DNA of 64,000 bases. Origin: Candidatus Bathyarchaeia archaeon. GTDB taxonomy: Archaea; Thermoproteota; Bathyarchaeia; 40CM-2-53-6. The DNA is taken from assembly GCA_049521055.1 (NCBI GenBank), contig JBEKPE010000001.1, forward strand, positions 44,837 through 108,836. Reading direction: 5' to 3'. This document shows positions 140 to 14,825 of this stretch, piece by piece. Below the pieces are notes generated by a model. It was not told where the DNA came from. It searched no databases and saw nothing but the letters and a program-made list of their open reading frames with translations. Both the position numbers and the translations under genes were made by a program. The stretch's first letter is position 1; each line of letters begins with the position of its first letter.

Positions 140-811
140 GTGAAGTGTCCGTCTTGCGGTAATGAGATAACGGGAAATAGCAAATTCTGTACTAGCTGTG
201 GGTACAAGCTGGAAGGTGCCCCCGCACAAACTCCAACCGCTAAACCCACTTCTCCTTTTTCGGGAAGAGAGTACATCATCGAGCAGAAGATTGCTGCCCT
301 ACGCGATACGTTTGGAATCAAAGACAGAAGCGGTAACCTGCTCGCATATGTGAAGAAGAAACTGGTCAGCTGGGGTCCACAATTCTATTTCGAGACGCCA
401 GATGGCGGCAGGTTAGGTGAGATGAGGGGGAAAGTCCTAACGGTCAGACCTACTTTTGAAATCTACGACCCGCGAGGACTCGTAGCAGTAGTCAAGAAGA
501 AGGTCCTGAAACTGCTAGGTTCCGAATGGTGGCTTGAAGACTCGACCGGGAAGGAGATCGCGAGAATTAAGGGAAACATAACCGCGCACGAATTTTCCAT
601 TCAAAACCCGTCGGGTAGCACAATAGCTCAGATTCACAAGAAATGGGTGAGCATTCGCGATTCCTACGGCGTCGAAATCTCAAGTCAAGAAATCGACCCG
701 TACGTAATTCTGGCCTACGCGATAGCCATGGACCACGCCCAATTCAAAGGTGTACAGAAGGGTCTCAGCATAGGGCTCGGAGGCTTAGGCGGCATACCAA
801 CCGACTTCTAA
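140..811 (+). CDS. N-terminal zinc-ribbon plus LURP-one-related (DUF567/tubby-like) domain protein
   Basis: N-terminal CPSCG...CTSCG zinc ribbon and a body resembling the LOR/DUF567 fold. GTG start. Confidence 0.45.
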   Translation: MKCPSCGNEITGNSKFCTSCGYKLEGAPAQTPTAKPTSPFSGREYIIEQKIAALRDTFGIKDRSGNLLAYVKKKLVSWGPQFYFETPDGGRLGEMRGKVLTVRPTFEIYDPRGLVAVVKKKVLKLLGSEWWLEDSTGKEIARIKGNITAHEFSIQNPSGSTIAQIHKKWVSIRDSYGVEISSQEIDPYVILAYAIAMDHAQFKGVQKGLSIGLGGLGGIPTDF

Positions 812-890
812 CTGAAATGGAATGTTAGTGCGAACCTGTCTTCGGAAAATTACGCTCTGCCAAACTGCCAAAAAATAGGCGGGGCTGGAA

Positions 891-1135
891 TCAAATTCTC
901 TTGAGTTGGGCCAGCGTCTTCTCGTTCTTCACGTCACCAGTGTTCAGGGTTGATTTCGGTTCTATCAAAACAACGTGAACCTCTTCATTGGCAACTGGCT
1001 TATGCTCAACTCCTTTCGGAATTATGATAAACTCCCCCTCATCTAACCAAATGTCTTTGTCCCTTAGTTTGATCAGCAGTTTTCCTTTCTTTACAAGGAA
1101 TAATTCGTCCTCAGCCGCGTGTTTGTGCCAGGTTC
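891..1135 (-). pseudogene. cupin-domain gene fragment, N-terminus removed by IS insertion
   Basis: Minus-strand frame reads ...RTWHKHAAEDELFLVKKGKLLIKL...IIIPKGVEHKPVANEEVHVVLIEP...*. There is no in-frame start; the frame runs into the IS right end at 1136 and hits a stop inside it. Confidence 0.45.
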
Positions 1136-2444
1136 TGTTAACTCTTCGACTCGTGGCTTCGAGTTAGCTTCGTTGGATCGACTCTTAGGATTACCTTCGG
1201 CCATGTTGGGCCTGCATCGGGTTCCTTTACCATCGCTTCAATTCCAACGCCTTCCGACCGGGCGAACCTCACCCGCCCCGCCTGCTAATGTTCAATACGG
1301 CGACTAGGTCGCGGTCGAACATTTCTCGGCATCGCTGGCACCAGAGTTTTCGGCGTAGTTGTTTGCTCGATTGGAGTCTCTCCCCGCATCTCGGGCAAAC
1401 CCTGCTCGTGCCTCTGGTCTCAGACTTACTAAGCGTGATCACGGGTACACCCACCCAAGCGGCTTTGTATTCGATTTGCCGCTTAACTTCGTGAAAAGGC
1501 CAACTGTTCATTCGCGCACGGTAGCCCCTACCCTGCGAACTTCCTCTCCGATACAGTTTTCGGATGTCGCGAATATCCTCGAAGACAATTCCATGTCGGT
1601 TCTGGAGAGCTGACTCAACGACTCGTCTTGACACTATGTGGAGTAGCTGACGTATTCGGTTCTTTCTTCGTTCGCCGTACTTGCCGGTAATGGCAGTACG
1701 AGTTCGGGCATCATTGCGCCTAAAAGATCGTGCAATTTCCCTCGTCGTCTTGGCGATCTCAGATGCCTTTCCCATTTCATAGTACAAGATTTCTTCCGAG
1801 TTGCCTACGGTCAGGTTGTTGAGGTTCCTATCCACGCCCACAACCCCGGCCAATTGCTTGATCGGATCCACGTCTTTGCTGATGCATAACGACAAGGATT
1901 CTCGGGTCAGAGTGAAGGAACGTGCTCTAATCTTAGGTTCAGCTAGGGTTCGAAGTGTGTGCGCGTTTAATGGAATAGCGTATGTCTCCCTCCGCCCGAC
2001 AGGGACAAGTAGTTTGCCGTCCACGATTTTGAATCCGTAGCAGGAAGTTAACAGCACTTTCTTCAAGAATGGGTTCTTCGTCATGTGGCCGCGTTTGATA
2101 GATTTCTTTCGTGCTGCAAGGATTCCGGCAGCCTTGGAGCTTGCGCAGAGTTTGTAATATGACGGAAGGCGGAAGCCTCGAAGCTCTCGGTAAGATAGTA
2201 AGGAGAGTCTTTTCAACGATGACGCATCATTCGCCAACCCGATTCCGATGCAGATGTTCGTCATCTGCCTGAAAGATTCCATCAACCCGAGAGTGCACTC
2301 ATCGGGATGGAAGCGTTGCTTCACCGACTTCCTCACAAGCAAAGCTAAGCAAGAGACAGCCATCTCCTGAGCAACTTAAAATGTAGAGAGGAAACCGAAA
2401 CTACTCACGCCAAAATACCAGAACGCATGAGCCGCCAAGTTAAC
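1136..2444 (-). mobile_element. IS200/IS605-family TnpB-only element, copy 1 (degenerate)
   Basis: Ends are GGTTCTGTTAAC at 1130-1141 and ATGAGCCGCCAAGTTAAC at 2427-2444. These are homologous to the ends of copies 2 and 3, but the right-end inverted repeat is degraded. Confidence 0.6.
1269..2363 (-). CDS. tnpB: TnpB/OrfB RNA-guided endonuclease-like transposase-associated protein (C-terminal frame disruption)
   Basis: RuvC-like GVDRNLNN and E-containing IVFEDI motifs, C-terminal CPRCG...CQRC zinc finger and DRDLVAVLNI RuvC-III. Sequence downstream of the stop still encodes VRFA...EAMV in another frame, like copies 2 and 3. Confidence 0.8.
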   Translation of the reverse strand: MAVSCLALLVRKSVKQRFHPDECTLGLMESFRQMTNICIGIGLANDASSLKRLSLLSYRELRGFRLPSYYKLCASSKAAGILAARKKSIKRGHMTKNPFLKKVLLTSCYGFKIVDGKLLVPVGRRETYAIPLNAHTLRTLAEPKIRARSFTLTRESLSLCISKDVDPIKQLAGVVGVDRNLNNLTVGNSEEILYYEMGKASEIAKTTREIARSFRRNDARTRTAITGKYGERRKNRIRQLLHIVSRRVVESALQNRHGIVFEDIRDIRKLYRRGSSQGRGYRARMNSWPFHEVKRQIEYKAAWVGVPVITLSKSETRGTSRVCPRCGERLQSSKQLRRKLWCQRCREMFDRDLVAVLNISRRGG

Positions 2445-2521
2445 AATATTGAATCAAGTAAATTTCTGAGCTATGTTTACTTTCTCAAGTTTTGAGTGCT
2501 CACTCAAGGGACAGACCTGGC

Positions 2522-3415
2522 TTACTGTTTCTTTTCTGGCCAGTCGTAGAAACCTTTCCCGGTCTTTCTTCCCAGTAGGTTTGCGCGCACCATTTGTTTG
2601 AGTAGGTTGCTCGGGCGGAATTTTGGATCTCCAGTCTCGTTCACCATCACGTCCGTGATGAAGAGGTGGGTGTCGGCGCCCACGTAGTCAATCAGTTTCA
2701 GTGGCCCCATTGGCCAATTCAATCCTAGGGTAATTGCTTTGTCAATATCCTCCGGATCTGCAACCCCTTCCGCAACAAGGAATACGGCCTCGTTGAGGGC
2801 GGGAACTAGGATCCGGTTTACAATGAATCCTGGTGTATCCTTCTTGACTAGGACTGACTCTTTCCCAAGCTTAGCAGAAACTTGCTTGATTGTCTCTACT
2901 GTCTCATCCGAGGTTTTCAGCCCGCGGACAATCTCGATGAGTCGCATGAGTTGTGGGGGGTTGAAGAAGTGCATCCCGCAAACCTTCTCAGCCCTTGTCG
3001 TGGCGGCCCCAATCTCGGTTATGCTGATCGAGGACGTGTTCGACGCGATTATTGCGTGTGGGGGAGCATACTTGTCCGCCTCCGCAAGGACGGCTTTCTT
3101 GAGCGGTGGATTCTCGGTGACGGCCTCGATAACTAAATCCGCGTTCTGAACAGCCTGTTTCAGGTCCAGGGTGGGGTGAATTCTGTTGAGAATTTCTTTC
3201 GACTCAGCTTCGGTTATGTTTCCTTTCTTGACGAATCGTTGGAGGCTGTCTTTGATCATCTTCATGCCGTTATCGACGAACCGTTGCTCGATATCCCGCA
3301 TGCTAACTTCGAATTTGCCAGTTTGAGCGCAGACTTGGGCAATGCCATGGCCCATCAAACCAGCGCCCAACACACATACTCGCTTCACTTCGGTTCTGTT
3401 AACTTGTTGGCTCAT
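2522..3415 (-). CDS. 3-hydroxyacyl-CoA / 3-hydroxybutyryl-CoA dehydrogenase
   Basis: Rossmann VCVLGAGLMGHGIAQV N-terminus and a typical HBD C-terminal domain. The first 8 codons (MSQQVNRT) are IS-end sequence; the native start is probably the GTG near 3389. Confidence 0.85.
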   Translation of the reverse strand: MSQQVNRTEVKRVCVLGAGLMGHGIAQVCAQTGKFEVSMRDIEQRFVDNGMKMIKDSLQRFVKKGNITEAESKEILNRIHPTLDLKQAVQNADLVIEAVTENPPLKKAVLAEADKYAPPHAIIASNTSSISITEIGAATTRAEKVCGMHFFNPPQLMRLIEIVRGLKTSDETVETIKQVSAKLGKESVLVKKDTPGFIVNRILVPALNEAVFLVAEGVADPEDIDKAITLGLNWPMGPLKLIDYVGADTHLFITDVMVNETGDPKFRPSNLLKQMVRANLLGRKTGKGFYDWPEKKQ

Positions 3416-4641
3416 GGGGCTTCAACTCGTTAGCTCGCTTCCATCGACTTTCAGGATTACCTACTAAGGATTCCTGTACCATCGCTTCAACTGGAAGCGC
3501 GATTGGCGCGAACCTCACGCCTCTTGCTAGGATATTCCTAGCAGCGTTTACGTCTCGGTCTACGGTGAATCCGCAGCTCGGGCACTTGAGTTGTCGGCTC
3601 TCTTCGGGTTTACGCGCCATGCGCGACCCACACATCGAACACTTCACCGAAGTGCCAGACGGATTCACGTAGATGACTGGGATGCCTTCCCACTGGGCCT
3701 TGTATTCGATCTGACGCTGCAATTCAAAGTAACTCCAACCGTTCATCACCCCACGATAACCTCTGCACTGCCAGTTACCGTGCCGGTAAAGTTTCCTTAT
3801 GCCTGTCAGCTTCTCCATGACGATGCCAAACTCCCTGCCCTTCGCATCCTCTACGATCTGTTTTGAGGCGTTGTGGAGAATCCGCTTCACCTTCTCTTGT
3901 TGCTTCCGACCGTACTTGCTGGTGATTTCGCGGAGGATGCGCACATCGTTCCGCCTGATGCGGGAGCGTACCAGTCGGTAGGTAGCCTTTACCCTTGTCG
4001 CCTCGGTTAGTTCATGCTTCGCGCTGGAACCGTCCGTGGACGCCAATGTGACATTGTTCAGGTTTCGGTCGATGCCGATAAAACCACTCGGTCGGACCTC
4101 CGCGACCTCCTTCGCATATGTCAACGACAACTTGTCCTGGGTCAACGTAACCGAACGAACCTTGTACTTTCGAATAGTTGCTTGAACATGCGGCGTAATA
4201 GGAATTCTGATCGATTCCCCAGGATGGTACGGCAGAAGAAGACAGCCGTCCTTAATCTTGAATCCATAGCAGGTGGTCAAACGCAAACGTCGAACATGAG
4301 GAGCTGTCGGATTCTCTCCATGTCGAACCGTTCTGCGATAATTCCGGAGTATTCCAGTTACGCCGCTGATGGCGCATAGCTTGTAGTAGCTCATAGCGTC
4401 GTAGGTTGCAAGTTGTTTGTACGCTTTCACGGACAAGGACTTGAGGCTCGTGGCGTTCTCAGTCAAGCCAATCTGTATGCAAGTGTTCATCATTCGGCGG
4501 AACTCGTCAAGCATCAGTAGAATCTCGGGGCTGGGCGTGTAGTGCTGCTGAACTGCTTTGATCGCCCGCATAACTTAGCGTCCGCTTTCAATCTCTTTTA
4601 GGCATGAGAGGTCGGTGAAACCAATGAGCCGACAAGTTAAC
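3398..4641 (-). mobile_element. IS200/IS605-family TnpB-only element, copy 2 (1244 bp) with about 20-bp terminal inverted repeats
   Basis: GTTAACTTGTTGGCTCAT at 3398-3415 is the reverse complement of ATGAGCCGACAAGTTAAC at 4624-4641. Confidence 0.75.
3399..4571 (-). CDS. tnpB: TnpB/OrfB family protein (390 aa)
   Basis: GIDRNLNN, IVMEKLTGI, CSMCG...CPSCG zinc finger and DRDVNAARNI. About 78% aa identity to copy 3. Confidence 0.9.
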   Translation of the reverse strand: MRAIKAVQQHYTPSPEILLMLDEFRRMMNTCIQIGLTENATSLKSLSVKAYKQLATYDAMSYYKLCAISGVTGILRNYRRTVRHGENPTAPHVRRLRLTTCYGFKIKDGCLLLPYHPGESIRIPITPHVQATIRKYKVRSVTLTQDKLSLTYAKEVAEVRPSGFIGIDRNLNNVTLASTDGSSAKHELTEATRVKATYRLVRSRIRRNDVRILREITSKYGRKQQEKVKRILHNASKQIVEDAKGREFGIVMEKLTGIRKLYRHGNWQCRGYRGVMNGWSYFELQRQIEYKAQWEGIPVIYVNPSGTSVKCSMCGSRMARKPEESRQLKCPSCGFTVDRDVNAARNILARGVRFAPIALPVEAMVQESLVGNPESRWKRANELKPHEPTS

Positions 4642-4768
4642 GGAGCTCCATAGTCCATTTTTCAATCGAAATATGCTTTCCCATACAGGAGGCGCTTGGT
4701 TGGGCGTCATGGAAAGGCTCTGCTCGCGGTCGAGCCATATAGAGAGCCGTTACCACGGACGGCTGAGT

Positions 4769-6118
4769 CTATCGAAGCTGAGCTGCTACTTCCTTTACGG
4801 CGCCTTCGAAGATTTCCAGTCCTTCATCGATGATGTCGCGGGTTATGATGAGGGGGGGTGCGAAGCGCATCGAGGATTTTCCGGCAGTTATGATTGCTAA
4901 TCCTCGTTTGAAGCATTTGTTGGTTATGTCCTCCACTTCCTGAGCGGCTGGTTCCTTGGTTTCCGGGTCTTTGACGAATTCCACTCCGACCATCAACCCT
5001 TTGCCGCGCACGTCGCCTATTATGGGGTATTGCTGTTGCATTTCTTTCAGTCGCTTCATTAGGTACGTCCCTTGATGGGTCGCGTTCTCCATGAGCTTTT
5101 CATCCTTTATGATGCCAATCACTTGTAATGCGGCGGCGCAGGCTACAGGATTACCCCCAAACGTATTGGCATGAGAACCCCCTTCCCAATCCATGAGTTC
5201 CTGTTTAGCTACGGCGGCGCCGATTGGGAGGCCGGATGCAAGAGCCTTGGCGGTGGTTAGAATGTCAGGCGTTACGCCCCAGTGCTCTAAAGCGAACCAT
5301 CTACCGGTCCGCCCCATCCCAGATTGTATCTCGTCGTCAGCCAGTAGAATGTCATATTTGTCAAGTATTTTCTTCAAACGCTGGAAATAATCGTCGGGAG
5401 GAACCACGTAGCCGCTCTCGCCTTGAATTGGCTCCACAAACATTGCAGCAGTGTCTTCAGGAGGATGATATTTCTTGAGTACCTCTTCTTCTATGAAGTC
5501 GACGCACCACATGTCGCACTCCGGATACTTCAGCCCGAAGGGACAGCGGTAGCAGTAGGGATAAGGAACGTGGGTTACTTCTGGAACGAGCGGGAAAAAG
5601 TGTCTTCTCTGAACCGGCTTACTCGCAGTAAGCGCCATAGTTCCGAAACTTCTTCCATGAAACGCGCCGGTGTACGCTAAGAATAACGGTTTGCGAGTGT
5701 GCCAACGGGCCATCTTCATCGCGGCCTCGTTTGCCTCCGCACCGCTATTACAGAAGAACACTTTCTTAGGAAATGAACCAGGCGTAATCTTAGTCAGTTG
5801 CTCCCCTAGGTCAACGATTGGCTTATAGTAGAAATCGGTCCATGAATAGTGAATTAGTTTCTCAGCTTGATCCTTGATCGCTTTGACGACGCGCGGATGC
5901 GAATGCCCCACGGCCAAAACGACTAATCCCGAATTAAAATCTATGAACTCGTTACCGTCAACATCCTTAACGACGCATCCTGAACCAGAGTCTGCAACGA
6001 GAGGATACCAACGTACAACCGATTGCGACAAGATGGTCGCATCTTTCTGAAGCAATTCTCTCGCCTTAGGCCCGGGCGGAGTGACGACGATCTTATGTCG
6101 TTGAACTTTGGTCACCAT
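4769..6118 (-). CDS. class III PLP-dependent aminotransferase (GabT/ArgD-like)
   Basis: Aminotransferase class III architecture throughout (about 450 aa) with conserved-looking PLP-lysine region. Confidence 0.8.
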   Translation of the reverse strand: MVTKVQRHKIVVTPPGPKARELLQKDATILSQSVVRWYPLVADSGSGCVVKDVDGNEFIDFNSGLVVLAVGHSHPRVVKAIKDQAEKLIHYSWTDFYYKPIVDLGEQLTKITPGSFPKKVFFCNSGAEANEAAMKMARWHTRKPLFLAYTGAFHGRSFGTMALTASKPVQRRHFFPLVPEVTHVPYPYCYRCPFGLKYPECDMWCVDFIEEEVLKKYHPPEDTAAMFVEPIQGESGYVVPPDDYFQRLKKILDKYDILLADDEIQSGMGRTGRWFALEHWGVTPDILTTAKALASGLPIGAAVAKQELMDWEGGSHANTFGGNPVACAAALQVIGIIKDEKLMENATHQGTYLMKRLKEMQQQYPIIGDVRGKGLMVGVEFVKDPETKEPAAQEVEDITNKCFKRGLAIITAGKSSMRFAPPLIITRDIIDEGLEIFEGAVKEVAAQLR

Positions 6119-6256
6119 TATGAGTCACCGACTTGTTCCAACGCGAGCGCTTAGTCCGTGAATTGTAAAAGGCTTCCGTTCATCTCTCGTGCATAACACT
6201 GATGCATTGAGAGACAGGTTTCGTAGCTTTATGACAGAGCCGATATGTGGCCTCTA

Positions 6257-8113
6257 TCAGTTTATGATTAGAGGCACGATCCTTTGGCTGTCAACGTCAA
6301 AGAGCCCTTTGTCTGTAATTCTTGCGTGTGATATTACTGGAAGTGCGAGCGTGGAGATTATCAGTATGGTTCCGTAATCGACGAGTCCGAGTTGCTCCTC
6401 CACCTTTCTGAATGCCAACAGTTTACCTGCGACGGTCTCAGCCTTTTCTTCCGACATGAGGCCTGCTACCGGCAGTTCAACTTCAGCCAAAACTTTTCCT
6501 CCGTTCACTGCAACCAGCCCACCTTGGCACTCGATTAGAGTGTTCGCTGCCACCGCCATATCTGACGGGGTATTCCCCACAACAGTAAGGTTGTGTGAAT
6601 CATGTGAAATTGTTGTAGCCAAGGCGCCTTCTTTCAGGCCGAATCTATCCAGGAAGCCAAGCGACTTGTTTCTAGTCTTTCCGTGCCTTTCAAAAACGGC
6701 AACCGTTGCGCCATCGTGCTGCACAATATGGTCCTTGACAGTCACATCTTTTTCTTCAAAGTTGGTTAGGAAGCCCTGCATGGTTATCGTTCGGACTCTG
6801 ATTGATCCACTCTCTTTTTCGACCCGCACCTGGAAATCATCCGGCGTCACTCTCTGAAGTTTCACTGTGCGTGTTGCTTCTTTCGGGAAATGGGTTGTTG
6901 CAAGTTTTGTTACGAGCGTGCCATTCTCCGCTACGATTCTCCCGTTCGCGACAACCAACTTCACCTTGAACTCATTCAAGTCTTTGACTAGTAGAATGTC
7001 AGCGATTTTTCCTGGGCTTATGGCGCCGCGGTCGAATAGGCGAAGGTGTTTGGCTGGGAAGAGGGTTGCTGAGCGAACTGCATCTATTGGATCGAACCCG
7101 TTCTGTATCGCTTTGCGCACAACGTCGTCCAAATGTCCATCTCGCATGAGATCGTCTGGCATTGTGTCGTCGGTAACAAGCAGCAGGCCTTGCTTGCTGG
7201 GAAGATTGGACAGCAACTTGACTAATCCGGGAACGAGGGAGAATTTCCTTAGTTTCGCGAACATTCCTAGGCGGATTTCGCGGAGGATTATATCAAAATC
7301 AGCTTTGTAACCATGGTCTGCATCTACGGGAAAGTATTCGTGGTTTGCTTCAATTCCTGAGGCTGCGTAAGCGTTTGTTCCCTTTTCATCTAGATTCATG
7401 CAGTGACCATCGATAACGACTCCTGCCTCTCTGCCAGCCTTGACTATCTCAGTCATTCGTTTGTCGAGGTTGATCACACCACTGTAATCCATTACTTCAG
7501 CGAGGCCGATAACCCTCTCCCAACCAAGCATCTCTCTAACATCTGACACTTGGATTTCAGCCCCAGCCGTGTCCGCATTCAATACCGCGGGTACGCAGGT
7601 AGGAACGAGAACAAGGACCTTCAAAGGCAGACCTGCGCTGGAATCAAGCATCATCCTTACCCCAGCCTTCCCCAACACGTTCCCAATCTCATGCGGATCA
7701 ATGGCTACAGTAGTTGTCCCATGCGGGAGAACGGCTTCAGCAAATCGCGGTGGGGTAACCATACTGCTCTCAATGTGGAGATGCGAATCGATCAGGCCTT
7801 GAATGGCATACATTCCTTTCGCATCGAAAACATCCTTCGACTTAATTTCCTCTAGCTCCCCAACATAGGAGATTTTGTCACCACAAATCCCTATACTCGT
7901 CTCGTATTGCTCGCGCGTGTAAACGTTCACGAGCCGCACGTTTCTTAACACGAGATCGAACGGGGCGTCTCCGCGTGCAGTCTGAACCAGCCTTTCATAT
8001 GTCATTATTGTAATCATCCCGAATCTGGCGCAACCTAGATTTGGCTTCTGTGGACCGATCCCGGTGATGGCGCAGGTGGGTTCTAGTACCTCTTCGTTGT
8101 GCATTACTTTCAT
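6257..8113 (-). CDS. ade: adenine deaminase
   Basis: Amidohydrolase with the DSHLHIESSMVTP...HGTT...DPHEIGNVLG signature typical of adenine deaminase. Confidence 0.8.
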   Translation of the reverse strand: MKVMHNEEVLEPTCAITGIGPQKPNLGCARFGMITIMTYERLVQTARGDAPFDLVLRNVRLVNVYTREQYETSIGICGDKISYVGELEEIKSKDVFDAKGMYAIQGLIDSHLHIESSMVTPPRFAEAVLPHGTTTVAIDPHEIGNVLGKAGVRMMLDSSAGLPLKVLVLVPTCVPAVLNADTAGAEIQVSDVREMLGWERVIGLAEVMDYSGVINLDKRMTEIVKAGREAGVVIDGHCMNLDEKGTNAYAASGIEANHEYFPVDADHGYKADFDIILREIRLGMFAKLRKFSLVPGLVKLLSNLPSKQGLLLVTDDTMPDDLMRDGHLDDVVRKAIQNGFDPIDAVRSATLFPAKHLRLFDRGAISPGKIADILLVKDLNEFKVKLVVANGRIVAENGTLVTKLATTHFPKEATRTVKLQRVTPDDFQVRVEKESGSIRVRTITMQGFLTNFEEKDVTVKDHIVQHDGATVAVFERHGKTRNKSLGFLDRFGLKEGALATTISHDSHNLTVVGNTPSDMAVAANTLIECQGGLVAVNGGKVLAEVELPVAGLMSEEKAETVAGKLLAFRKVEEQLGLVDYGTILIISTLALPVISHARITDKGLFDVDSQRIVPLIIN

Positions 8114-8211
8114 TCGCCCATGCGGTACGATTCGTAACGTTCATTCTGGACTCACGTATGCTTCTATTCGCAACCCGTAGACCCGGAGTTCAAGCTGTCT
8201 CAAAGACTGTC

Positions 8212-8320
8212 CATGTGTTGGAGGGGTGTCAAACACCCCCCTGTCGGCTGTCTTACACCCGTACCCTTCTTTTCAAGTGGGACCAAAATCCCACCCGTCC
8301 CCCCCAGTTTCGAACTTCCT
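8212..8320. repeat. conserved hairpin element copy A (GGGGTGT-caa-ACACCCC followed by CTGTCTTACACCCGTAC...GGGACC)
   Basis: About 60-100 nt similar to 55650-55735, and partially to 31663-31705. Confidence 0.6.
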
Positions 8321-8328
8321 GGTAGACC

Positions 8329-8718
8329 CTATATCATATGGGCTTCAGCCAACCCACGAAAGTGAGGGTCACCGGTAACGACCTTCCCCTGCCGGTCTCG
8401 CGCAGTCGAGAGAACAATTGAGTCAGCTAGGCCCCATCCCTGAACTTTTTTCTTCATCGCGACATCAGTCTTAGCCGCTTCAACGGCCAAATTCTCATCA
8501 AGTGGAATAAGCGCGCTTCTTGACTTGATGAATGCTCTTCTGAGTTCAGCTTTTTGTTCATCTTCCGTTTTCAGAATCTTCGCGTATGTCTCCGCCAGAC
8601 AAATTGAGGGTGTGAGTTTCTCATACGCTTCCGTGTCGATGATCTGTTTGACTTTTTGGCCGGCTTCGGTTCCCATGAAATATTCAAGCCATGCATAGGA
8701 ATCCATGATGTACCTCAT
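8329..8718 (-). CDS. vapC: PIN-domain toxin VapC
   Basis: PIN-domain-like sequence about 129 aa long. It overlaps the upstream small gene by 4 bp. Confidence 0.7.
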   Translation of the reverse strand: MRYIMDSYAWLEYFMGTEAGQKVKQIIDTEAYEKLTPSICLAETYAKILKTEDEQKAELRRAFIKSRSALIPLDENLAVEAAKTDVAMKKKVQGWGLADSIVLSTARDRQGKVVTGDPHFRGLAEAHMI

Positions 8719-8900
8719 AAGCGGTCCCTATGGTCTCGCATGTCTTTCAGTGACGTCCTTCTCATTGTCCCGAACATACCCTCTCCCTTCAGAAGAGCTT
8801 CTGCAAGAATTGCATTGATAGCTTCGGACATGCCTCTGGGCCCGAACTTCTCCTTCAGGATCTCGTAGAGGTCTTCTCTAAGCAATACCGTTGTCTTCAT
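8715..8900 (-). CDS. vapB: VapB-like antitoxin (RHH/AbrB-like small DNA-binding protein)
   Basis: 61-aa ORF overlapping vapC by 4 bp, in typical TA operon geometry. Confidence 0.5.
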   Translation of the reverse strand: MKTTVLLREDLYEILKEKFGPRGMSEAINAILAEALLKGEGMFGTMRRTSLKDMRDHRDRL

Positions 8901-9009
8901 TACGGATACGGTACCTTAACCCTAAACATAGATGTTTAAGCCTTACGGCAAGCGAGTCGAGAATAGGTTTGCGATTCCACTCCCGGAGCCTTACGGGATG
9001 CTGATGTGT

Positions 9010-9034
9010 TGCCAAACAATGAGGCAACACAATC
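9010..9034. terminator. 8-bp-stem hairpin GTGTTGCC-loop-GGCAACAC downstream of permease gene
   Basis: Perfect inverted repeat seen in sequence. Its terminator role is inferred. Confidence 0.3.
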
Positions 9035-9094
9035 GCTCAGATGGATTTGGTGAGCGAGGCGCCTAGGTGTAAGGATCGCCTTATTGTCTTGTGT

Positions 9095-10657
9095 TCATTC
9101 GGGGGGGATTTCTTTGTAGGCGAGTGTTATGTCGATTCCTCGTTTTCCGTGGTAGTACTTGGAAATTCCGTATAGGACCAGGCCTGTTAGAAATGAGGCT
9201 GCTACGTATGAGTAGGCGAATGTGTTTCCGCCCCAAACCGATGGAAACGCTAGGAACTGGTAAAGCAGGTATAGAAATACGAGTGAGGTGAAGGTTCCAC
9301 AGGATAACAGTAACCATTTCGCCTGTCCCTTCTCCTTCCTAACTCCATACACCGCTCCTGCTGCTCCGATGGAGGCGAAGTAAATCATCGAGGCGATGAC
9401 GCTTCCGTACAGGGATACCAAAGTTCCATAGAGGAAGGAGGCCCCGCCGATCAGGAATACAACTACGACGAGATCAATCAGGTGTGCCACTACGGGGGAA
9501 CCCCATTTGGGAGTGACGTACGCAATTTTTGATGGTAGGAAGCGGTCGAATGCTTCGGCGAAGAGATACCGAGAAACGAGAATTATCCCGTATGCAAGGA
9601 TAGCGACGTTCCAGAGAATCCATCCTAGCCCAATGAACCATGACAAGGCGAGGTTGTTGGATACTCCCATCGCTAGAGTCCAAAAGTTGAACGAGTACGT
9701 ATACACCAAAGTGGAGTTGGCCAAGGCGGCCGTAATGAATTCGAACCCTCCTACAAAGTACATCGTCGCGAACGAACCGGTAACGAGTAAGAAGATGATG
9801 AATGCTGCGATTGGGATGTTCCATTTGAGGGTTTTATTTCCGCCTTTGAGTTCAGATGCTACGGCTGGGCCTGCGAAGACCCATGGGTAAACGAAGATTG
9901 CGAAGAACGGAAGCATCATAATTGTGGCATTGAAATCGAACGTAGACCCTGTATAAGACGCAGCGACCTTTGCGTAGGTCGTATTCGCGCCGATGCTGTT
10001 GAGGAAGTCCATGTAACTCGACACTCCTGCCCTACCGGCAGAGAGGAGTGCGAGGTTACCGGCGATCATACTAATGACACCGACAGTAGTGCATACTGCT
10101 ACAAGTTTGTATCCGAACTTGGGTCTCCAGATATTCACGCCTATCATTACACCGAAGATGATGGCCCCAAGGATGAACTGGGACACAACGTCAGCCCCTT
10201 GAATGTTCCCAGGTAAAGCGAGACCAAGGCAACTTGTGATTCCGCAACTTGTGTAACCCAAAGAGGCTCCTACTGAACCGATTGCAAAGATTGTTGAAAG
10301 CGTAATCAGCGCAAGATATGCCATCGTCTCGAGGGCTGGACCCATAAACGCTAGGGATCCTCCCAACCATCCGCCGAATGTCCGTGAAAGCCAGACATAA
10401 TCTCCGCCCGTTCTGGGTATGCGTTGTGTCATCATCGTGTAGACGACAATTTGTGGGATAGAAAGCACGAACGCAATAATCGATCCATACACAAGGTTTA
10501 CGCCAGATATGGTTGGCAGCAAAACCATCGTGAAACCCACAACAGCAAGCGCCGCTCCGGCTGACATGTCAGCTATGTTGAGAGCGACCGCGTCAAAGAG
10601 AGAGACGTTCTTGATTAGTCCGGTAGCTTCACGAACGAAAACAGCACCTTTAGCCAA
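9095..10657 (-). CDS. APC-superfamily amino acid/polyamine permease
   Basis: About 12 predicted TM segments and APC-like glycine-rich helices. Confidence 0.8.
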   Translation of the reverse strand: MAKGAVFVREATGLIKNVSLFDAVALNIADMSAGAALAVVGFTMVLLPTISGVNLVYGSIIAFVLSIPQIVVYTMMTQRIPRTGGDYVWLSRTFGGWLGGSLAFMGPALETMAYLALITLSTIFAIGSVGASLGYTSCGITSCLGLALPGNIQGADVVSQFILGAIIFGVMIGVNIWRPKFGYKLVAVCTTVGVISMIAGNLALLSAGRAGVSSYMDFLNSIGANTTYAKVAASYTGSTFDFNATIMMLPFFAIFVYPWVFAGPAVASELKGGNKTLKWNIPIAAFIIFLLVTGSFATMYFVGGFEFITAALANSTLVYTYSFNFWTLAMGVSNNLALSWFIGLGWILWNVAILAYGIILVSRYLFAEAFDRFLPSKIAYVTPKWGSPVVAHLIDLVVVVFLIGGASFLYGTLVSLYGSVIASMIYFASIGAAGAVYGVRKEKGQAKWLLLSCGTFTSLVFLYLLYQFLAFPSVWGGNTFAYSYVAASFLTGLVLYGISKYYHGKRGIDITLAYKEIPPE

Positions 10658-10753
10658 TCAGTCTTCCCTAGAACGCCATTCGTAACGTCTGTTCGCATAA
10701 AAGACTTTGTTGACACTTTCAGATGACGGCGGACCTGATCGTTACAAAGATTT

Positions 10754-11797
10754 ATGAACGCACCCAAAAATAAAGCCCGAAGGCCAACTTTGTCAAGTAG
10801 AATTGACCAAATGATCTACGAATTTCCCAAGGCTGAGTTACACCTTCACATAGAGGGCACGTTTGAGCCGGAACTGATGTTTGAAATAGCGCAGCGAAAC
10901 AAAGTCAAACTTCCGTACAAAACCGTGGATGAGGTTCGAAACGCCTACAAGTTCACGGACCTCCAATCATTCTTGGACATATACTACAACGCGATGAGCG
11001 TTCTTCTTCACGAACAGGACTTTTACGAGCTGACCATGGCTTATCTGAAGCGTGCCTCATCCCAAGGGGTTCGCCACGCTGAAATCTTCTTCGACCCCCA
11101 AGCCCACACAGATCGCCATGTACCTTTCGACACCGTTGTCAACGGAATAAGTCACGCTCTCAGCGACGGCCAGAAGAGCATGGGAATGACATCCAAACTG
11201 ATAATGTGCTTCCTAAGAGACCTCTCAGCGGCTTCCGCGATGCAAATGCTGGACAACGCTTTCTCGTACAAAGACAAGATTTTCGCGGTGGGTTTGGACT
11301 CGAAAGAACTCGGGAATCCTCCCAGTAAGTTTCAGGAAGTGTTCACGAAAGCAAGGAAAGGAGGCTTCGTAGCAGTCGCACACGCAGGAGAAGAGGCTCC
11401 CCCCGAATATGTGTGGGAAGCTTTAGAATTATTGGGGGTGTCTCGGATCGATCATGGATACCACTCCCTCGAGGACCCAAAATTAGTTGAAAAACTTGTG
11501 AAGGATCAAATCCCCCTAACCGCCTGCCCATTGGCCAGCGTCGGGGTTCAGTACTTTGAGTCCATGGATAAGTTCCCGATCAAGAGAATGCTCGATCTAG
11601 GCTTGCTTGTGATGCTGAATTCTGACGATCCCGCGTATTTCGGGGGGTATGTGGCTGAGAATTACAAGGCAGTCGCTGACGCGCTGAGGCTCACCGAGCA
11701 GGATATCCTCAAACTTTTGAAGAACTCATTCAAGGCTTCATTCCTAGAAGAGAACTCCAAACAGCGTTATATCGCACAACTAGACGAAAAATTCTGA
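10754..11797 (+). CDS. add: adenosine/adenine deaminase family protein
   Basis: PKAELHLHIEGT metal-binding motif and ADA-family length. Confidence 0.85.
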   Translation: MNAPKNKARRPTLSSRIDQMIYEFPKAELHLHIEGTFEPELMFEIAQRNKVKLPYKTVDEVRNAYKFTDLQSFLDIYYNAMSVLLHEQDFYELTMAYLKRASSQGVRHAEIFFDPQAHTDRHVPFDTVVNGISHALSDGQKSMGMTSKLIMCFLRDLSAASAMQMLDNAFSYKDKIFAVGLDSKELGNPPSKFQEVFTKARKGGFVAVAHAGEEAPPEYVWEALELLGVSRIDHGYHSLEDPKLVEKLVKDQIPLTACPLASVGVQYFESMDKFPIKRMLDLGLLVMLNSDDPAYFGGYVAENYKAVADALRLTEQDILKLLKNSFKASFLEENSKQRYIAQLDEKF

Positions 11798-11871
11798 ACC
11801 GACCGCGATAATTCTCACCACGTCACTGCAAAGGTAACGGTATCGAGACGTCGACTATCTTGCTCTATAAC

Positions 11872-12219
11872 TCAGGGGGGTGTGGTTTGTTCAACTTCGA
11901 CGTTCTCGTCTTCCTCATATTCGTCTTCGTCTTCTCCTTGCGAGAGTGTGATTTCAATGGTTGAAATATTGCCTCGAGTGCCGTCGTAGCGGGTGACGTC
12001 TTCTGATCCGAGGTTTATGCTTTTGACGATAACGTCTCTGAGGAAACTATGCTTTAGCATTTGTACGGTGTCGATGGCTTTCTCTATTGCTTGGCCTCTT
12101 GCCCTGACCATGACTTTCCCGTTGCCCGAATTGAAGAGGGTTACGCAGGCCGTCACGTAGTTCATAATGGGTTTCTTGCCAATTCGAACAAGGTTCGGCT
12201 GACTCATCGAACACACCAT
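11872..12219 (-). CDS. albA: chromatin protein Alba with acidic C-terminal tail
   Basis: LVRIGKKPIMNYVTACVTLFN...KARGQAIEKAIDTVQML matches Alba. It carries an extra EDEDEYEEDENVEVE tail. Confidence 0.8.
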   Translation of the reverse strand: MVCSMSQPNLVRIGKKPIMNYVTACVTLFNSGNGKVMVRARGQAIEKAIDTVQMLKHSFLRDVIVKSINLGSEDVTRYDGTRGNISTIEITLSQGEDEDEYEEDENVEVEQTTPP

Positions 12220-12340
12220 AGCAAAATTGTTGGATTACTCGTGAAGAGCGTTGTCTTTCAGGGTTTTCTGGGAAAGAACCTCTCGCGTTCTATTAAGATT
12301 GTTCGACGAAAGAATTCATTATTAAAATAGCTTGTTCTCT

Positions 12341-13330
12341 CTATCCACCAATGGTATGCATCGGCCGAATGTGTTCGAGCGGTTCATACTTCTTGAGCAG
12401 TGTCTCAACACCGGGCGCCTTCCGCAGGATCGCGTCGCGCATGAAAGTGATGATGGTTTCATCGGTGGCTCCGCCTCTGAGTAGGGGCCTGAGATCGAAT
12501 CCTGTTCGATCAAATAGGCAGGGGACTATTTTGCCGTCGGCGGAGATGCGTATTCTGTCGCAATCGGAGCAGAATGGTTGGGTTATTGAAGTGATTATTC
12601 CGATCTCTCCTTTTCCGTCTTGGAACTTGTAGAGCTTTGCTGTGCTGCCGGCTTGTCGCGGGACTGAATCCAATTCGTAGTGTTCTCGAATTTTCTCCAC
12701 GATCTCATTTCCGCTGACTACTTTATCCATGCCCCAATGCCGCTCGCCGTCGAAAGGCATGTACTCAATGAACCTAACCGTCACGTCACCTGCCTTTGCA
12801 AGAGAAGCTAGGTCAACTACCTCGTCATCATTGCATCCTCGAATGATCACGGCGTTTATTTTGAGAGGCTTGAAGCCGCTTGATTTCGCCGCTTTTATTC
12901 CAGCGACGACGGTTTCGAGGACTCCGCCTCCCGTTATCTGGCTGAACCTTTCGGGCTTGAGGCTGTGAAGGCTTACAGTGATTCCCTTCAACCCTGCTCG
13001 CTTTAGGGCTGAGGCTTTCTCAGATAGGAGGAATCCGTTGGTTGTCATGCTGAGCTGGCGGAGGTTAGGAATGTTAGCTAAGAGCGCGACAAGCTGCTCG
13101 ATGTCGCGGCGCATTAGGGGTTCGCCGCCACTGAGACGTATGTTCTCTACACCCATACCCACGCATAGGGATGCGACACGCCGAATCTCCTCATAACTGA
13201 GAATCTCGCTGTGCGGTAACCAGACCGGGTGTGTGGGCATACAGAACTGACAGCGGAAGTTACAGCGGTCCGTAACCGAAATCCGAAGCTTACGCGCAAC
13301 GCGCCCAAAAGAATCGGTTAGAACCGACAC
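12341..13330 (-). CDS. moaA: GTP 3',8-cyclase MoaA (radical SAM)
   Basis: CNFRCQFC radical-SAM motif and C-terminal second cluster cysteines. Confidence 0.9.
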   Translation of the reverse strand: MSVLTDSFGRVARKLRISVTDRCNFRCQFCMPTHPVWLPHSEILSYEEIRRVASLCVGMGVENIRLSGGEPLMRRDIEQLVALLANIPNLRQLSMTTNGFLLSEKASALKRAGLKGITVSLHSLKPERFSQITGGGVLETVVAGIKAAKSSGFKPLKINAVIIRGCNDDEVVDLASLAKAGDVTVRFIEYMPFDGERHWGMDKVVSGNEIVEKIREHYELDSVPRQAGSTAKLYKFQDGKGEIGIITSITQPFCSDCDRIRISADGKIVPCLFDRTGFDLRPLLRGGATDETIITFMRDAILRKAPGVETLLKKYEPLEHIRPMHTIGG

Positions 13331-13543
13331 CAGACCTTAAACCGCCTGGGTAGCATGCTGAATTTCGACCATTTAAAGGCTGATTTCAATCAGTAAAGGT
13401 GTGGAGGCATGTATTCAAGGCAAAAAGCAGTCGCTAAGACCGATGCAAGAATTCTCCTAGCCGACGGCCTAGCCTCGTATGGCCCAGCCGCAGAAACCCT
13501 AAGCCGCCTAAGTAACATAGGCTAAAAATGCATCATTGGTTCT

Positions 13544-14787
13544 GTTAACTTGTTGGCTCATGAGGCCTTAACTCGTTAACTCGCTTCCATCGACTTTCAG
13601 GATTACCTTCCGAGGGTTCCTGTACCATCGCTTCAACTGGAAGCGCGATTGGCGCGAACCTCACGCCTCTCGCCAGAATGTTTCTGGCCGCGTTCACATC
13701 CCTATCTACGTTCACCCTGCACGATGGACATCTCAGCAGTCGTTTCTCTTCGGGTATTCTCGCCATGCGAGACCCACATATCGAACACTTCGCTGACGTC
13801 CCGTGCGGATAAACATAGATAACTGGCAAACCTTCCCAGCGAGCTTTATACTCGATCTGACGTTGTAACTCCGCATACGACCAAGAATTCATTCTCCCTC
13901 GATACCATCGACCTTGACCGTTTCCACGTTGATACAACTTCCGAACCCCAGTGAGTTGCTCCATGACGATGCCGAAATCGCGGGTCTTGGCTTGTTGCAC
14001 AATCATTTTGGATGCTTGATGGAGAATTCGCTTAACCTTCTCCTGTTGCTTCCGACCATACTTGCTGGTTATTTCGCGGCGGGTGCGCACATCGTTTCTC
14101 CTCATGTGAGATCGTATCTCGCGGTAAGTAGCCTTTACCCGTGTCGCGCCGGAGAGGTCATGTTTCATGATCGAACCGTTCGTGGAGGCTAATGTAACAT
14201 TGTTCAGGTTCCGATCAATGCCGATGAAGCCATCCGGCTTGATCGCCGCCACATGTTTCGCATATGCAAGCGACAGCTTGTCTTGTGTCAACGTGACCGA
14301 ACGAACTGTGTGTTTACGAATTGTTGCCTGAACATGGGGGGTTAGAGGGATTCTGATCCTTTCCTTGGGATGATGGGGTAGTAACAAGTAACCATTCTTG
14401 ATCTTGAAACCGTAGCATGTGGTCAACCGCAAACGTCGAACATGCGGGGTTGTTGGCTTCTTCCCATATCTTGTAGTTCTACGATAGTTCCGGAGGATAC
14501 CTGTTGCGCTGCTCATGGCGCATAGCTTGTAGTAGCTCATAGAATCGTACTCCGTAAGTTGTTTGTACGATTTCAGAGACAGAGCCTTGAGGCTCGTGAC
14601 ATTCTCCGCCAGACCAACCTCTATGCAGGTGTTCGTCATCTGGCGGAAATCGTTAAGCATCCGTAGAATCTCGGGCCTGGGTTCGTAGTATTGTTGAACG
14701 GTTTTGATCGCCCGCATAGCCTAACCTCAACTTTCAATGTCTATTAGCGATGAGAGGTCAGTGAAACCAATGAGCCGATAAGTTAAC
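13544..14787 (-). mobile_element. IS200/IS605-family TnpB-only element, copy 3 (1244 bp) with terminal inverted repeats
   Basis: GTTAACTTGTTGGCTCAT at 13544-13561 and ATGAGCCGATAAGTTAAC at 14770-14787. Confidence 0.75.
13545..14717 (-). CDS. tnpB: TnpB/OrfB family protein (390 aa)
   Basis: Same motifs as copy 2, with about 78% aa identity. Confidence 0.9.
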   Translation of the reverse strand: MRAIKTVQQYYEPRPEILRMLNDFRQMTNTCIEVGLAENVTSLKALSLKSYKQLTEYDSMSYYKLCAMSSATGILRNYRRTTRYGKKPTTPHVRRLRLTTCYGFKIKNGYLLLPHHPKERIRIPLTPHVQATIRKHTVRSVTLTQDKLSLAYAKHVAAIKPDGFIGIDRNLNNVTLASTNGSIMKHDLSGATRVKATYREIRSHMRRNDVRTRREITSKYGRKQQEKVKRILHQASKMIVQQAKTRDFGIVMEQLTGVRKLYQRGNGQGRWYRGRMNSWSYAELQRQIEYKARWEGLPVIYVYPHGTSAKCSICGSRMARIPEEKRLLRCPSCRVNVDRDVNAARNILARGVRFAPIALPVEAMVQEPSEGNPESRWKRVNELRPHEPTS

Positions 14788-14825
14788 AGAGCCCTAATTT
14801 TCATTACTACGGGCTAAGTGAAAGC

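Follow-up and report, generated by a model that had tools for sequence, protein, structure and literature searches.

The window analysed here, a 64-kb stretch of DNA from a Candidatus Bathyarchaeia archaeon (contig JBEKPE010000001.1), contains three elements, labelled W1, W2 and W3, that each carry tnpB as their only gene, lie on the minus strand, and are bounded by terminal inverted repeats of approximately 18-24 bp. The initial annotation had proposed three such elements, and the open reading frames (ORFs), the profile matches and the repeats at the ends it gave confirm them. They are co-oriented within 14 kb (1131-14793), among hbd, a class-III aminotransferase gene, an adenine deaminase gene, moaA and a bicupin gene; no reason for this clustering was found, and no further tnpB occurs anywhere in the window. 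The 18-mer GTTAACTTGTYGGCTCAT has five matches with at most one mismatch (2427-2444, 3398-3415, 4624-4641, 13544-13561 and 14770-14787), against 0.09 expected by chance. The hexamer GGTTCT stands directly outside GTTAAC on the low-coordinate side of all three copies, and hence the true elements span 1131-2450, 3392-4647 and 13538-14793. The intervals previously assigned to W2 and W3 (3398-4641 and 13544-14787) do each measure 1244 bp, but the real ends lie 6 nt further out (GGTTCT / AGAGCC-like), making both elements 1256 bp long, and the start formerly given for W1, 1136, has to be moved to 1131, its GTTAAC beginning at 1137. All three right ends read GGTTCTGTTAAC, whereas the left ends read GGCTCT (W3), AGCTCC (W2) and AATATT (W1), then GTTAAC, with three of the six left-tip positions mismatched in W2 and four in W1. 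A lone one-mismatch match without a partner, GGTACTGTTAAC at 40793, was treated as chance.

The three proteins all match PF07282 (E-values from 6e-25 to 3e-14) and score 153, 132 and 104 bits against the NCBIfam model guided_TnpB, for which the cut-off is 100; their closest solved structures in the PDB are Cas12f proteins and ISDra2 TnpB. D168, E253, D340 and the zinc finger are invariant in an alignment of 17 sequences, and W1 retains the equivalent residues. The W2 and W3 proteins, both 390 aa, are 77.7% identical, in agreement with the earlier estimate of about 78%, and the DNA of the two elements is 77% identical overall and 90% identical over 3398-3540, in keeping with the conserved right-end region described before. 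The W3 protein is identical to NCBI protein P0008, from a metagenome-assembled genome (MAG) of Candidatus Bathyarchaeia. W1 had been taken for an older, degraded copy of the same element. Its right-end and left-end repeats do differ (13/18 matches), and the C-terminus of its TnpB is indeed framed differently, but such tails are common in the family, and its TnpB is only 41% identical to that of W2 and closest to another subfamily (53% to L047). W1 also retains an intact omegaRNA, zinc finger and set of catalytic residues. On these comparisons, W1 is not an old copy of the W2/W3 element. Past the ...NILARG motif, the TnpB tail continues in another frame or ends early in P0016, P0053, P0079 and P0118, with the DNA conserved (window 3399-3530), such that homologues read the same nucleotides in different protein frames, as GNPESRWK or KVILKVDGSEL. 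Conserved DNA read in differing frames points to conservation at the RNA level, and the 'HEPTS*' tail is probably incidental to the RNA scaffold and repeat; the TAA stop codon of the W2 tnpB sits within the GTTAAC of its right-end repeat.

Relatives of these elements were taken from 80 genome loci, with TnpBs 39-80% identical, in MAGs of Bathyarchaeia, Nitrososphaeria (Thaumarchaeota) and Asgard (Atabeyarchaeia). Most of them have GGTTCTGTTAAC 55-100 nt upstream of the ATG, and GTTAACAGAACC downstream of tnpB. The inner positions of the repeat (13-24) have an identity of 0.69 within an element and 0.49 between elements, a value not attained in any of 5000 permutations. An exact 8-bp direct repeat abuts both ends at 27 of 65 loci, with one mismatch at 8 more (35/65), where an exact match anywhere in 293 positions has a chance of 0.4% per locus; the closest relatives, L001, L003, L004 and L005, have perfect 8-bp duplications. 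All duplication-bounded elements seeded on TnpB are 1.2-1.34 kb long, with tnpB as the sole gene. The terminal repeats are therefore a genuine feature of the family, and not a product of chance; the initial annotation had named their absence from other genomic copies as grounds for abandoning its proposal, and they do recur.

Such ends are those of the IS6 family, which is characterised by 8-bp duplications, repeats of 15-20 bp, GG tips and a cTGTt motif (PMC7986276). IS200/IS605 elements have neither terminal inverted repeats nor duplications (PMC13565253), and the same is true of IS607 (PMC6188088, PMC13565253); hence inverted repeats combined with an 8-bp duplication are incompatible with both groups, and with no second ORF the elements also lack the serine-recombinase TnpA of IS607. 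The window copies have the GG tips and cTGTt, but no IS240-type DDE transposase of their own, and therefore qualify only as non-autonomous IS6 derivatives. A metagenome scan with GGTTCTGTTAACTNNTNG returned 120 stretches, most without tnpB, in which the repeats, often with exact 8-bp duplications, enclose transposase, tnpB-only, omegaRNA-only and other-cargo elements. Over 200 related loci from archaea, the ends take the form GGTTCTGTTAAC..., and a target-site duplication of 8 bp is usual. The transposase-bearing elements are 2.2-5.2 kb long and encode a transposase of approximately 385 aa in which a SWIM zinc finger accompanies a DDE_Tnp_IS240 domain (L102, L119, L123, L134, L156, L211, L223 and L230); exact 8-bp duplications were also found at further DDE_Tnp_IS240 transposase elements. 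At L155 and L185 the transposase genes adjoin ends identical to the window type over 19-20 nt, and among the more than 1000 homologues of the L155 transposase are proteins of Candidatus Bathyarchaeia that carry the annotation IS6 family transposase. Other cargo within the same ends is exemplified by L101, with a ParE/PIN toxin pair, L127, with membrane proteins, and L155, with a putative DNA methyltransferase, while the omegaRNA-only miniature elements (L093, L122, L169, L171 and L192) measure 236-358 bp. Ends at the transposase-bearing metagenome loci L118, L185, L092 and L216/L218 went unpaired, the contigs being too short or the partner end missing, and tnpB and a transposase gene were never found together in one element among the loci examined. 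One end at L092 (14491-14514, GGTTCTGTTGCAAACC...) matches the classical bacterial IS257/IS26-type repeat, and the same contig holds GTTAAC-type ends, which would link the archaeal variant to the canonical IS6 consensus. The window copies are thus very likely non-autonomous members of the IS6 family (IS26/IS257/IS240-type) whose sole cargo is a TnpB gene with its omegaRNA, and they were probably moved by an IS6 transposase made elsewhere.

The right ends of these elements also appear to encode an RNA. In an alignment of the last 200 nt of 42 elements, RNAalifold found two helices with many compensatory changes. A five-helix model of 28 pairs has 88% of its cells paired, compared with 30-41% when the partners are slid, and a covariation score of 0.51, compared with 0.06-0.13 in controls; none of 500 shuffles reached the observed values, and 24 of the 28 pairs contain double changes. 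Four of the five helices are strongly supported, the fifth, a hairpin within the tnpB coding sequence, being only 66% paired. In the last helix an upstream GTTRAC pairs with the GTTAAC of the right-end repeat, and the omegaRNA profile reaches the final AGAACC in all members. By this evidence of covariation, the last approximately 130 nt of each element encode a structured RNA that runs through the right-end repeat to the final base; a gathering scan of the whole window against Rfam gave no match. Of 34 duplication-bounded elements, 30 have GGTTCT as the right tip and only 8 have it as the left tip, which suggests that the right tip is additionally constrained. Pairing of the hairpin loop GGUUC with the 3' GAACC is conceivable, by analogy with known TnpB pseudoknots; both sequences are invariant, and no covariation signal was obtainable for this pairing. 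The predicted guide would be the 16-20 nt past the right tip. The initial annotation had likewise expected a guide from the flank beyond the right end, and the structured RNA that reaches the element tip agrees with this, with the hbd start, the region upstream of moaA and, for W1, a cupin fragment as the putative guides.

Two other accounts of these ends have to be weighed against an IS6 origin. The initial annotation had framed the elements as IS200/IS605 (IS1341/ISC1316-like), in which case they would be IS1341-group members with incidental inverted ends, moved by a Y1 TnpA in trans through peel-and-paste transposition. They do hold tnpB only, subterminal hairpins can be drawn at both ends, and there are partial matches to the IS200- and IS607-type TnpB models of NCBIfam, albeit far under the cut-offs (IS607_TnpB scores 54 bits, against a cut-off of 350). 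Yet the duplications at 35/65 relatives are foreign to IS200/IS605 (PMC13565253), the repeats match the IS6 consensus and flank IS240-type DDE transposases, and no Y1 HUH TnpA lies inside the elements, each of which has a single ORF, the rest of the window and the host genomes not having been screened for one. With IS6-type GG tips and cTGTt, 8-bp duplications in relatives and the same ends around DDE_Tnp_IS240 genes, the IS200/IS605 framing is replaced by IS6, and an IS1341-group origin is extremely improbable. Alternatively, an ordinary TnpB element might have inserted by chance into an IS6 miniature element, leaving two functionally unrelated parts. IS6-type miniature elements with other cargo certainly exist (L127, L197, L101 and L010), but in all members, which span three archaeal phyla and protein identities of 40-80%, the omegaRNA profile and terminal helix extend to the final nucleotide of the IS6 right end, no internal IS605-like ends are seen in the alignments, the right tip is much more conserved than the left, and the omegaRNA-only derivatives retain the same junction; chance nesting is accordingly very unlikely. 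Three further sources of the 8-bp duplication were considered and rejected: the core of a tyrosine integrase, as the 8-mers differ between closely related elements; a casposase or Cas1, for which the duplication has the wrong length and no gene was found; and a staggered cut by TnpB itself, as the insertion point is at the edge proximal to the target-adjacent motif (TAM), and the known cut sites are TAM-distal.

A conserved motif also adjoins the left-side duplication. In the 34 tnpB elements with a duplication, the triplet immediately 5' of the left-side copy has T in 25, T in 32 and G in 25 at its successive positions, and reads TTG in 16, ATG in 6 and TTA in 5 (P of about 1e-17), and no conserved motif follows the right-side duplication. 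The left flanks of the window copies conform to this, with ATG before the 8 nt in W2 and W3 and TTA in W1, and in the five omegaRNA-only miniature elements with a duplication, TTG lies opposite the RNA side in three and CTG in a fourth. With TTG 5' of the left duplication, the empty site reads TTG-N8-flank and the guide N8-flank, which would be the geometry expected for a TAM followed by its target. The initial annotation had suggested deriving a target motif from the flanks, and TTG (or ATG/TTA) directly 5' of the left-side duplication is such a motif, although neither the duplications nor TTG had been seen at that stage.

These features suggest how such elements might persist. An IS6 transposase from elsewhere in the cell would bind both repeats and insert the element at a cut staggered by 8 bp. 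Transcripts starting at the left end would supply the tnpB mRNA and the omegaRNA, with a 3' guide taken from the 8-bp duplication and the flank immediately beyond the right end. TnpB loaded with this guide would recognise TTG as its TAM and cut the unoccupied allele, TTG-N8-flank, and recombinational repair would copy the element into the cut allele. The occupied site would be spared, since ...AGAACC precedes the right flank and the guide matches no more than 8 nt of the left flank. The window copies would have lost their duplications through adjacent deletion or recombination in the style of IS6. It may even be, and this is advanced as a conjecture with the odds against it, that TnpB and the omegaRNA are functionally coupled to a replicative IS6 transposon: insertions would be placed, or would survive, only with TTG 8 bp outside the left end, possibly with TnpB's reading of the TAM taking part in target choice, such that each copy is born with a guide and a TAM against its own empty allele, the right-end repeat also furnishing the guide RNA with its 3' stem and pseudoknot arm. 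A transposon that does not excise would thereby possess an RNA-guided gene-drive module.

Several observations weigh against the main reading, that of IS6-type elements with TnpB and omegaRNA as cargo. TnpB is usually explained as restoring IS200/IS605 and IS607 elements after scarless excision, and as IS6 is thought to be replicative, without excision, that rationale is not directly applicable and the usual reason for keeping TnpB would be removed. The steps of RNA production and cleavage are predicted from sequence. Target-site duplications are missing from all three window copies, and their degenerate left tips mean that W2 and W1 may no longer be mobile. No IS6 transposase was found across the 64 kb of the window, nor up to 3 kb from any of the 80 genome loci, and hence its supply in trans by the same genome is presumed. 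TTG also occurs on either side in 7 of 15 duplication-bounded elements without a detectable omegaRNA, autonomous ones included, and part of the signal may thus be a target preference of the transposase rather than, or besides, a TAM. That TTG is nothing but an IS6 target preference, unrelated to any TAM of TnpB, is possible, if on the unlikely side: TTG would be expected on one side in about 5% of elements by chance, and L102, L119 and L230 are among the autonomous elements that have it. A symmetric transposase acting on symmetric repeats should, though, give no left-side bias, whereas in the omegaRNA-bearing elements TTG is nearly always at the left-end side (T at -2 in 32/34; right 2/22), and most omegaRNA-only miniature elements have it in the same orientation. 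The TAM and the target of the transposase are one and the same in IS605, and both readings of TTG can therefore hold. If part of the TTG signal is transposase preference, the strict left-side bias in RNA-bearing elements would reflect coupling or selection.

The window copies may, on the other hand, be immobile relics, with TnpB and the omegaRNA kept for the host or for a purely selfish role other than transposition, such as the control or read-through of hbd. Consistent with this are the missing duplications, the degenerate left tips, the 64 kb devoid of transposase, the related P0016 element found at one fixed site in eight samples, and the start of hbd 3 nt from the W2 tip, which has the gene transcribed from or through the element. 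However, all three window copies retain intact ORFs, catalytic residues and omegaRNA, which argues for a nuclease function over a dead regulator, no TTG stands at the expected position beside the DNA at the locus that matches the guide, and the close relatives L001, L003, L004 and L005 retain perfect duplications. We therefore regard the idea that the copies are relics as unlikely, though worth retaining beside the main reading.

Table 1. Features of the three tnpB elements and their flanks in the window
Feature	Position	Strand	Description
W1 element	1131-2450	minus	1320 bp; subfamily distinct from W2/W3
W1 right-end repeat			GGTTCTGTTAACTCTTCGACTCGT
W1 left-end repeat	2427-2450		tip AATATT
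W1 tnpB	1269-2363	minus	364 aa; D/E/D and zinc finger present
W1 omegaRNA scaffold (predicted)	1131-1278	minus	profile E 3.6e-23; helices kept through compensatory changes
W1 putative guide	1130-1111	minus	TGGCACAAACACGCGGCTGA; within 5'-truncated cupin ORF (891-1130)
W2 element	3392-4647	minus	1256 bp; IS6-type ends around tnpB and omegaRNA scaffold
W2 right-end inverted repeat	3392-3415	minus	plus strand GGTTCTGTTAACTTGTTGGCTCAT; doubles as 3' hairpin arm and tip of the predicted omegaRNA scaffold
W2 left-end inverted repeat	4624-4647	minus	outer 6 nt degenerate: AGCTCC vs GGTTCT
W2 tnpB	3399-4571	minus	390 aa; RuvC D168/E253/D340 and CxxC...CxxC intact
W2 omegaRNA scaffold (predicted)	3392-3524	minus	profile E 6e-30; overlaps tnpB 3' end
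W2 putative guide	3391-3372	minus	GAAGTGAAGCGAGTATGTGT; includes hbd GTG start (3388-3386), 3 nt from tip
W2 left flank	4648-4658	minus	8-mer GACTATGG (4648-4655), ATG before it (4656-4658), the TAM-like position; 8-mer unlike right flank
W3 element	13538-14793	minus	1256 bp; architecture as W2
W3 right-end repeat	13538-13561	minus	part of predicted W3 omegaRNA scaffold
W3 left-end inverted repeat	14770-14793	minus	tip GGCTCT
W3 tnpB	13545-14717	minus	390 aa
W3 omegaRNA scaffold (predicted)	13538-13670	minus	profile E 3.7e-31
W3 putative guide	13537-13518	minus	AATGATGCATTTTTAGCCTA; moaA upstream intergenic region
W3 left flank	14794-14804	minus	8-mer AAAATTAG (14794-14801), ATG before it (14802-14804)

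The flanks of the window copies bear on their history. The cupin ORF (891-1130, minus strand) is truncated at its 5' end exactly at the right tip of W1, its Cupin_2 match starting from position 13 of the 70 in the profile, and the missing 5' part is absent from the other flank of W1. This absence suggests an adjacent deletion at W1, and the flank is as might be left by such a deletion, through replicative intramolecular transposition, or by recombination between copies, both being typical of IS6 (PMC7986276). A comparison by eye of the left and right 8-mers of the window copies, reverse complements included, gave no match that would indicate exchanged flanks, and a search for an empty site through the gene flanking W3 returned only the occupied locus and one contig broken at the element. 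The hbd gene is intact, with a 3HCDH_N match from residue 4, and is complete from the in-frame GTG at 3388-3386 (minus strand), 3 nt past the W2 tip. The ATG chosen by ORF finders (3415-3413, minus strand) is inside the right-end repeat of W2. With its GTG so close to the tip, hbd has no upstream region of its own, so it is probably expressed from or through the W2 element.

These elements combine traits of several known systems. They resemble the IS1341 group of IS200/IS605 in their lone tnpB, an omegaRNA extending over the 3' end of the gene to the right end, a flank-derived guide, and a transposase presumed to act in trans. However, that group has asymmetric hairpin ends without inverted repeats or duplications, a Y1 HUH transposase and a TAM abutting the left end, whereas the window family has IS6-type repeats, an 8-bp duplication, and a conserved TTG that, unlike an IS200/IS605 insertion site, is 8 bp off the left end and separated from it by that duplication. 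Altae-Tran et al. 2023 describe six DDE-associated TnpB branches (DDE-1 to DDE-6) with inverted terminal repeats, together with solo TnpBs that have matching ends and are presumed to be mobilised in trans (PMC10691335). The window family is similar to these branches, as described there, in having TnpB within inverted repeats, in including solo TnpBs, and in the proximity of the tnpB 3' end to the transposon end (PMC10691335). The DDE types named for TnpB branches, in a 2026 review, are IS630, ISL2 and IS1031, with no mention there of IS6 or IS240, and at the loci examined here tnpB and a transposase gene never share an element. The IS6-bounded TnpBs may nonetheless overlap with one of DDE-1 to DDE-6. 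From IS6/IS26 come the 8-bp duplications, repeats of 15-25 bp, GG tips, cTGTt and, in the autonomous relatives, the IS240-type DDE transposase (PMC7986276); moreover, IS6/IS26 copies often lack duplications owing to replicative intramolecular events, as do the window copies (PMC7986276). Yet classical IS6 elements are approximately 0.8 kb and contain a transposase only, whereas here an RNA-guided nuclease and a guide scaffold appear fused to one repeat, and the archaeal transposases with the same ends, of approximately 385 aa with a SWIM zinc finger, also differ from those of classical members. The IS6 review of Varani et al. 2021 does not mention TnpB and records just two miniature elements and a single passenger-gene member (PMC7986276). 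Fanzor is likewise an RNA-guided nuclease of the TnpB type found in transposons with inverted repeats and duplications, but is eukaryotic or viral, has a rearranged catalytic glutamate and belongs to other transposon superfamilies. Lastly, the scaffold-only elements L093, L122, L169, L171 and L192 are comparable to the standalone omegaRNAs of Altae-Tran et al. 2021, as reported in PMC10691335, and differ from that description in their IS6-type repeats and 8-bp duplications.

That TnpB can ride a DDE transposon with inverted repeats is already published (PMC10691335). Full-text literature searches for TnpB together with IS6 found nothing relevant; hence, as far as could be found, four points are apparently unpublished: the pairing of TnpB with IS6, TTG next to an 8-bp duplication, a repeat that overlaps the RNA scaffold, and omegaRNA-only IS6 miniature elements. 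Their significance is that a large archaeal TnpB clade, spanning Bathyarchaeia, Nitrososphaeria and Asgard, sits within the ends of IS6, a DDE family thought to be replicative, which would explain how many 'orphan' archaeal tnpB genes may move. A single DNA segment would serve both as a transposase site and as a guide-RNA scaffold, and the TTG-N8 geometry predicts TTG as the TAM and the duplication plus flank as the guide. Exact element and guide boundaries are now available for compact nucleases of approximately 390 aa that are possible editor candidates. For annotation, these tnpB genes should not be labelled as IS200/IS605 transposases, and the hbd ATG currently chosen should be recognised as belonging to the repeat of an element.

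Some minor observations concern the wider family. In eight metagenome or MAG records (L081-L088), the element encoding P0016 occupies the same place, with a TP_methylase gene on one side and a 530-aa ORF on the other. P0016 is listed on 23 contigs, and the eight places given for it, with similar ones collapsed, are one locus in different samples, with no multiple insertion sites among them, and the copy is fixed in its population. At L010, a 271-bp miniature element (5059-5329) with perfect IS6-type repeats and the flanking direct repeat TGCCAAAA carries an ORF of approximately 50 aa for a CxxC...CxxC zinc ribbon, and neither tnpB nor an omegaRNA. The same locus has a solo right-end/omegaRNA fragment (772-900, minus strand; profile positions 32-132) that lacks tnpB and adjoins an unrelated tnpB-like gene starting near 960. 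At L101, an IS6-type element (5199-6924) without tnpB has a full omegaRNA scaffold at one end, and its ORFs encode a ParE-family toxin and a PIN-domain protein. Autonomous relatives at L155 (100 to approximately 7000), L211 (1163-6404) and L230 (2607-7006) are composites of 4-5 kb that join the SWIM and IS240 transposase to other genes, among them a 770-aa ORF resembling an N6 DNA methyltransferase (read from the sequence by eye), MJECL32/33-family proteins and an NfeD-type protease, and they far exceed the 0.8 kb of a classical IS6 element.

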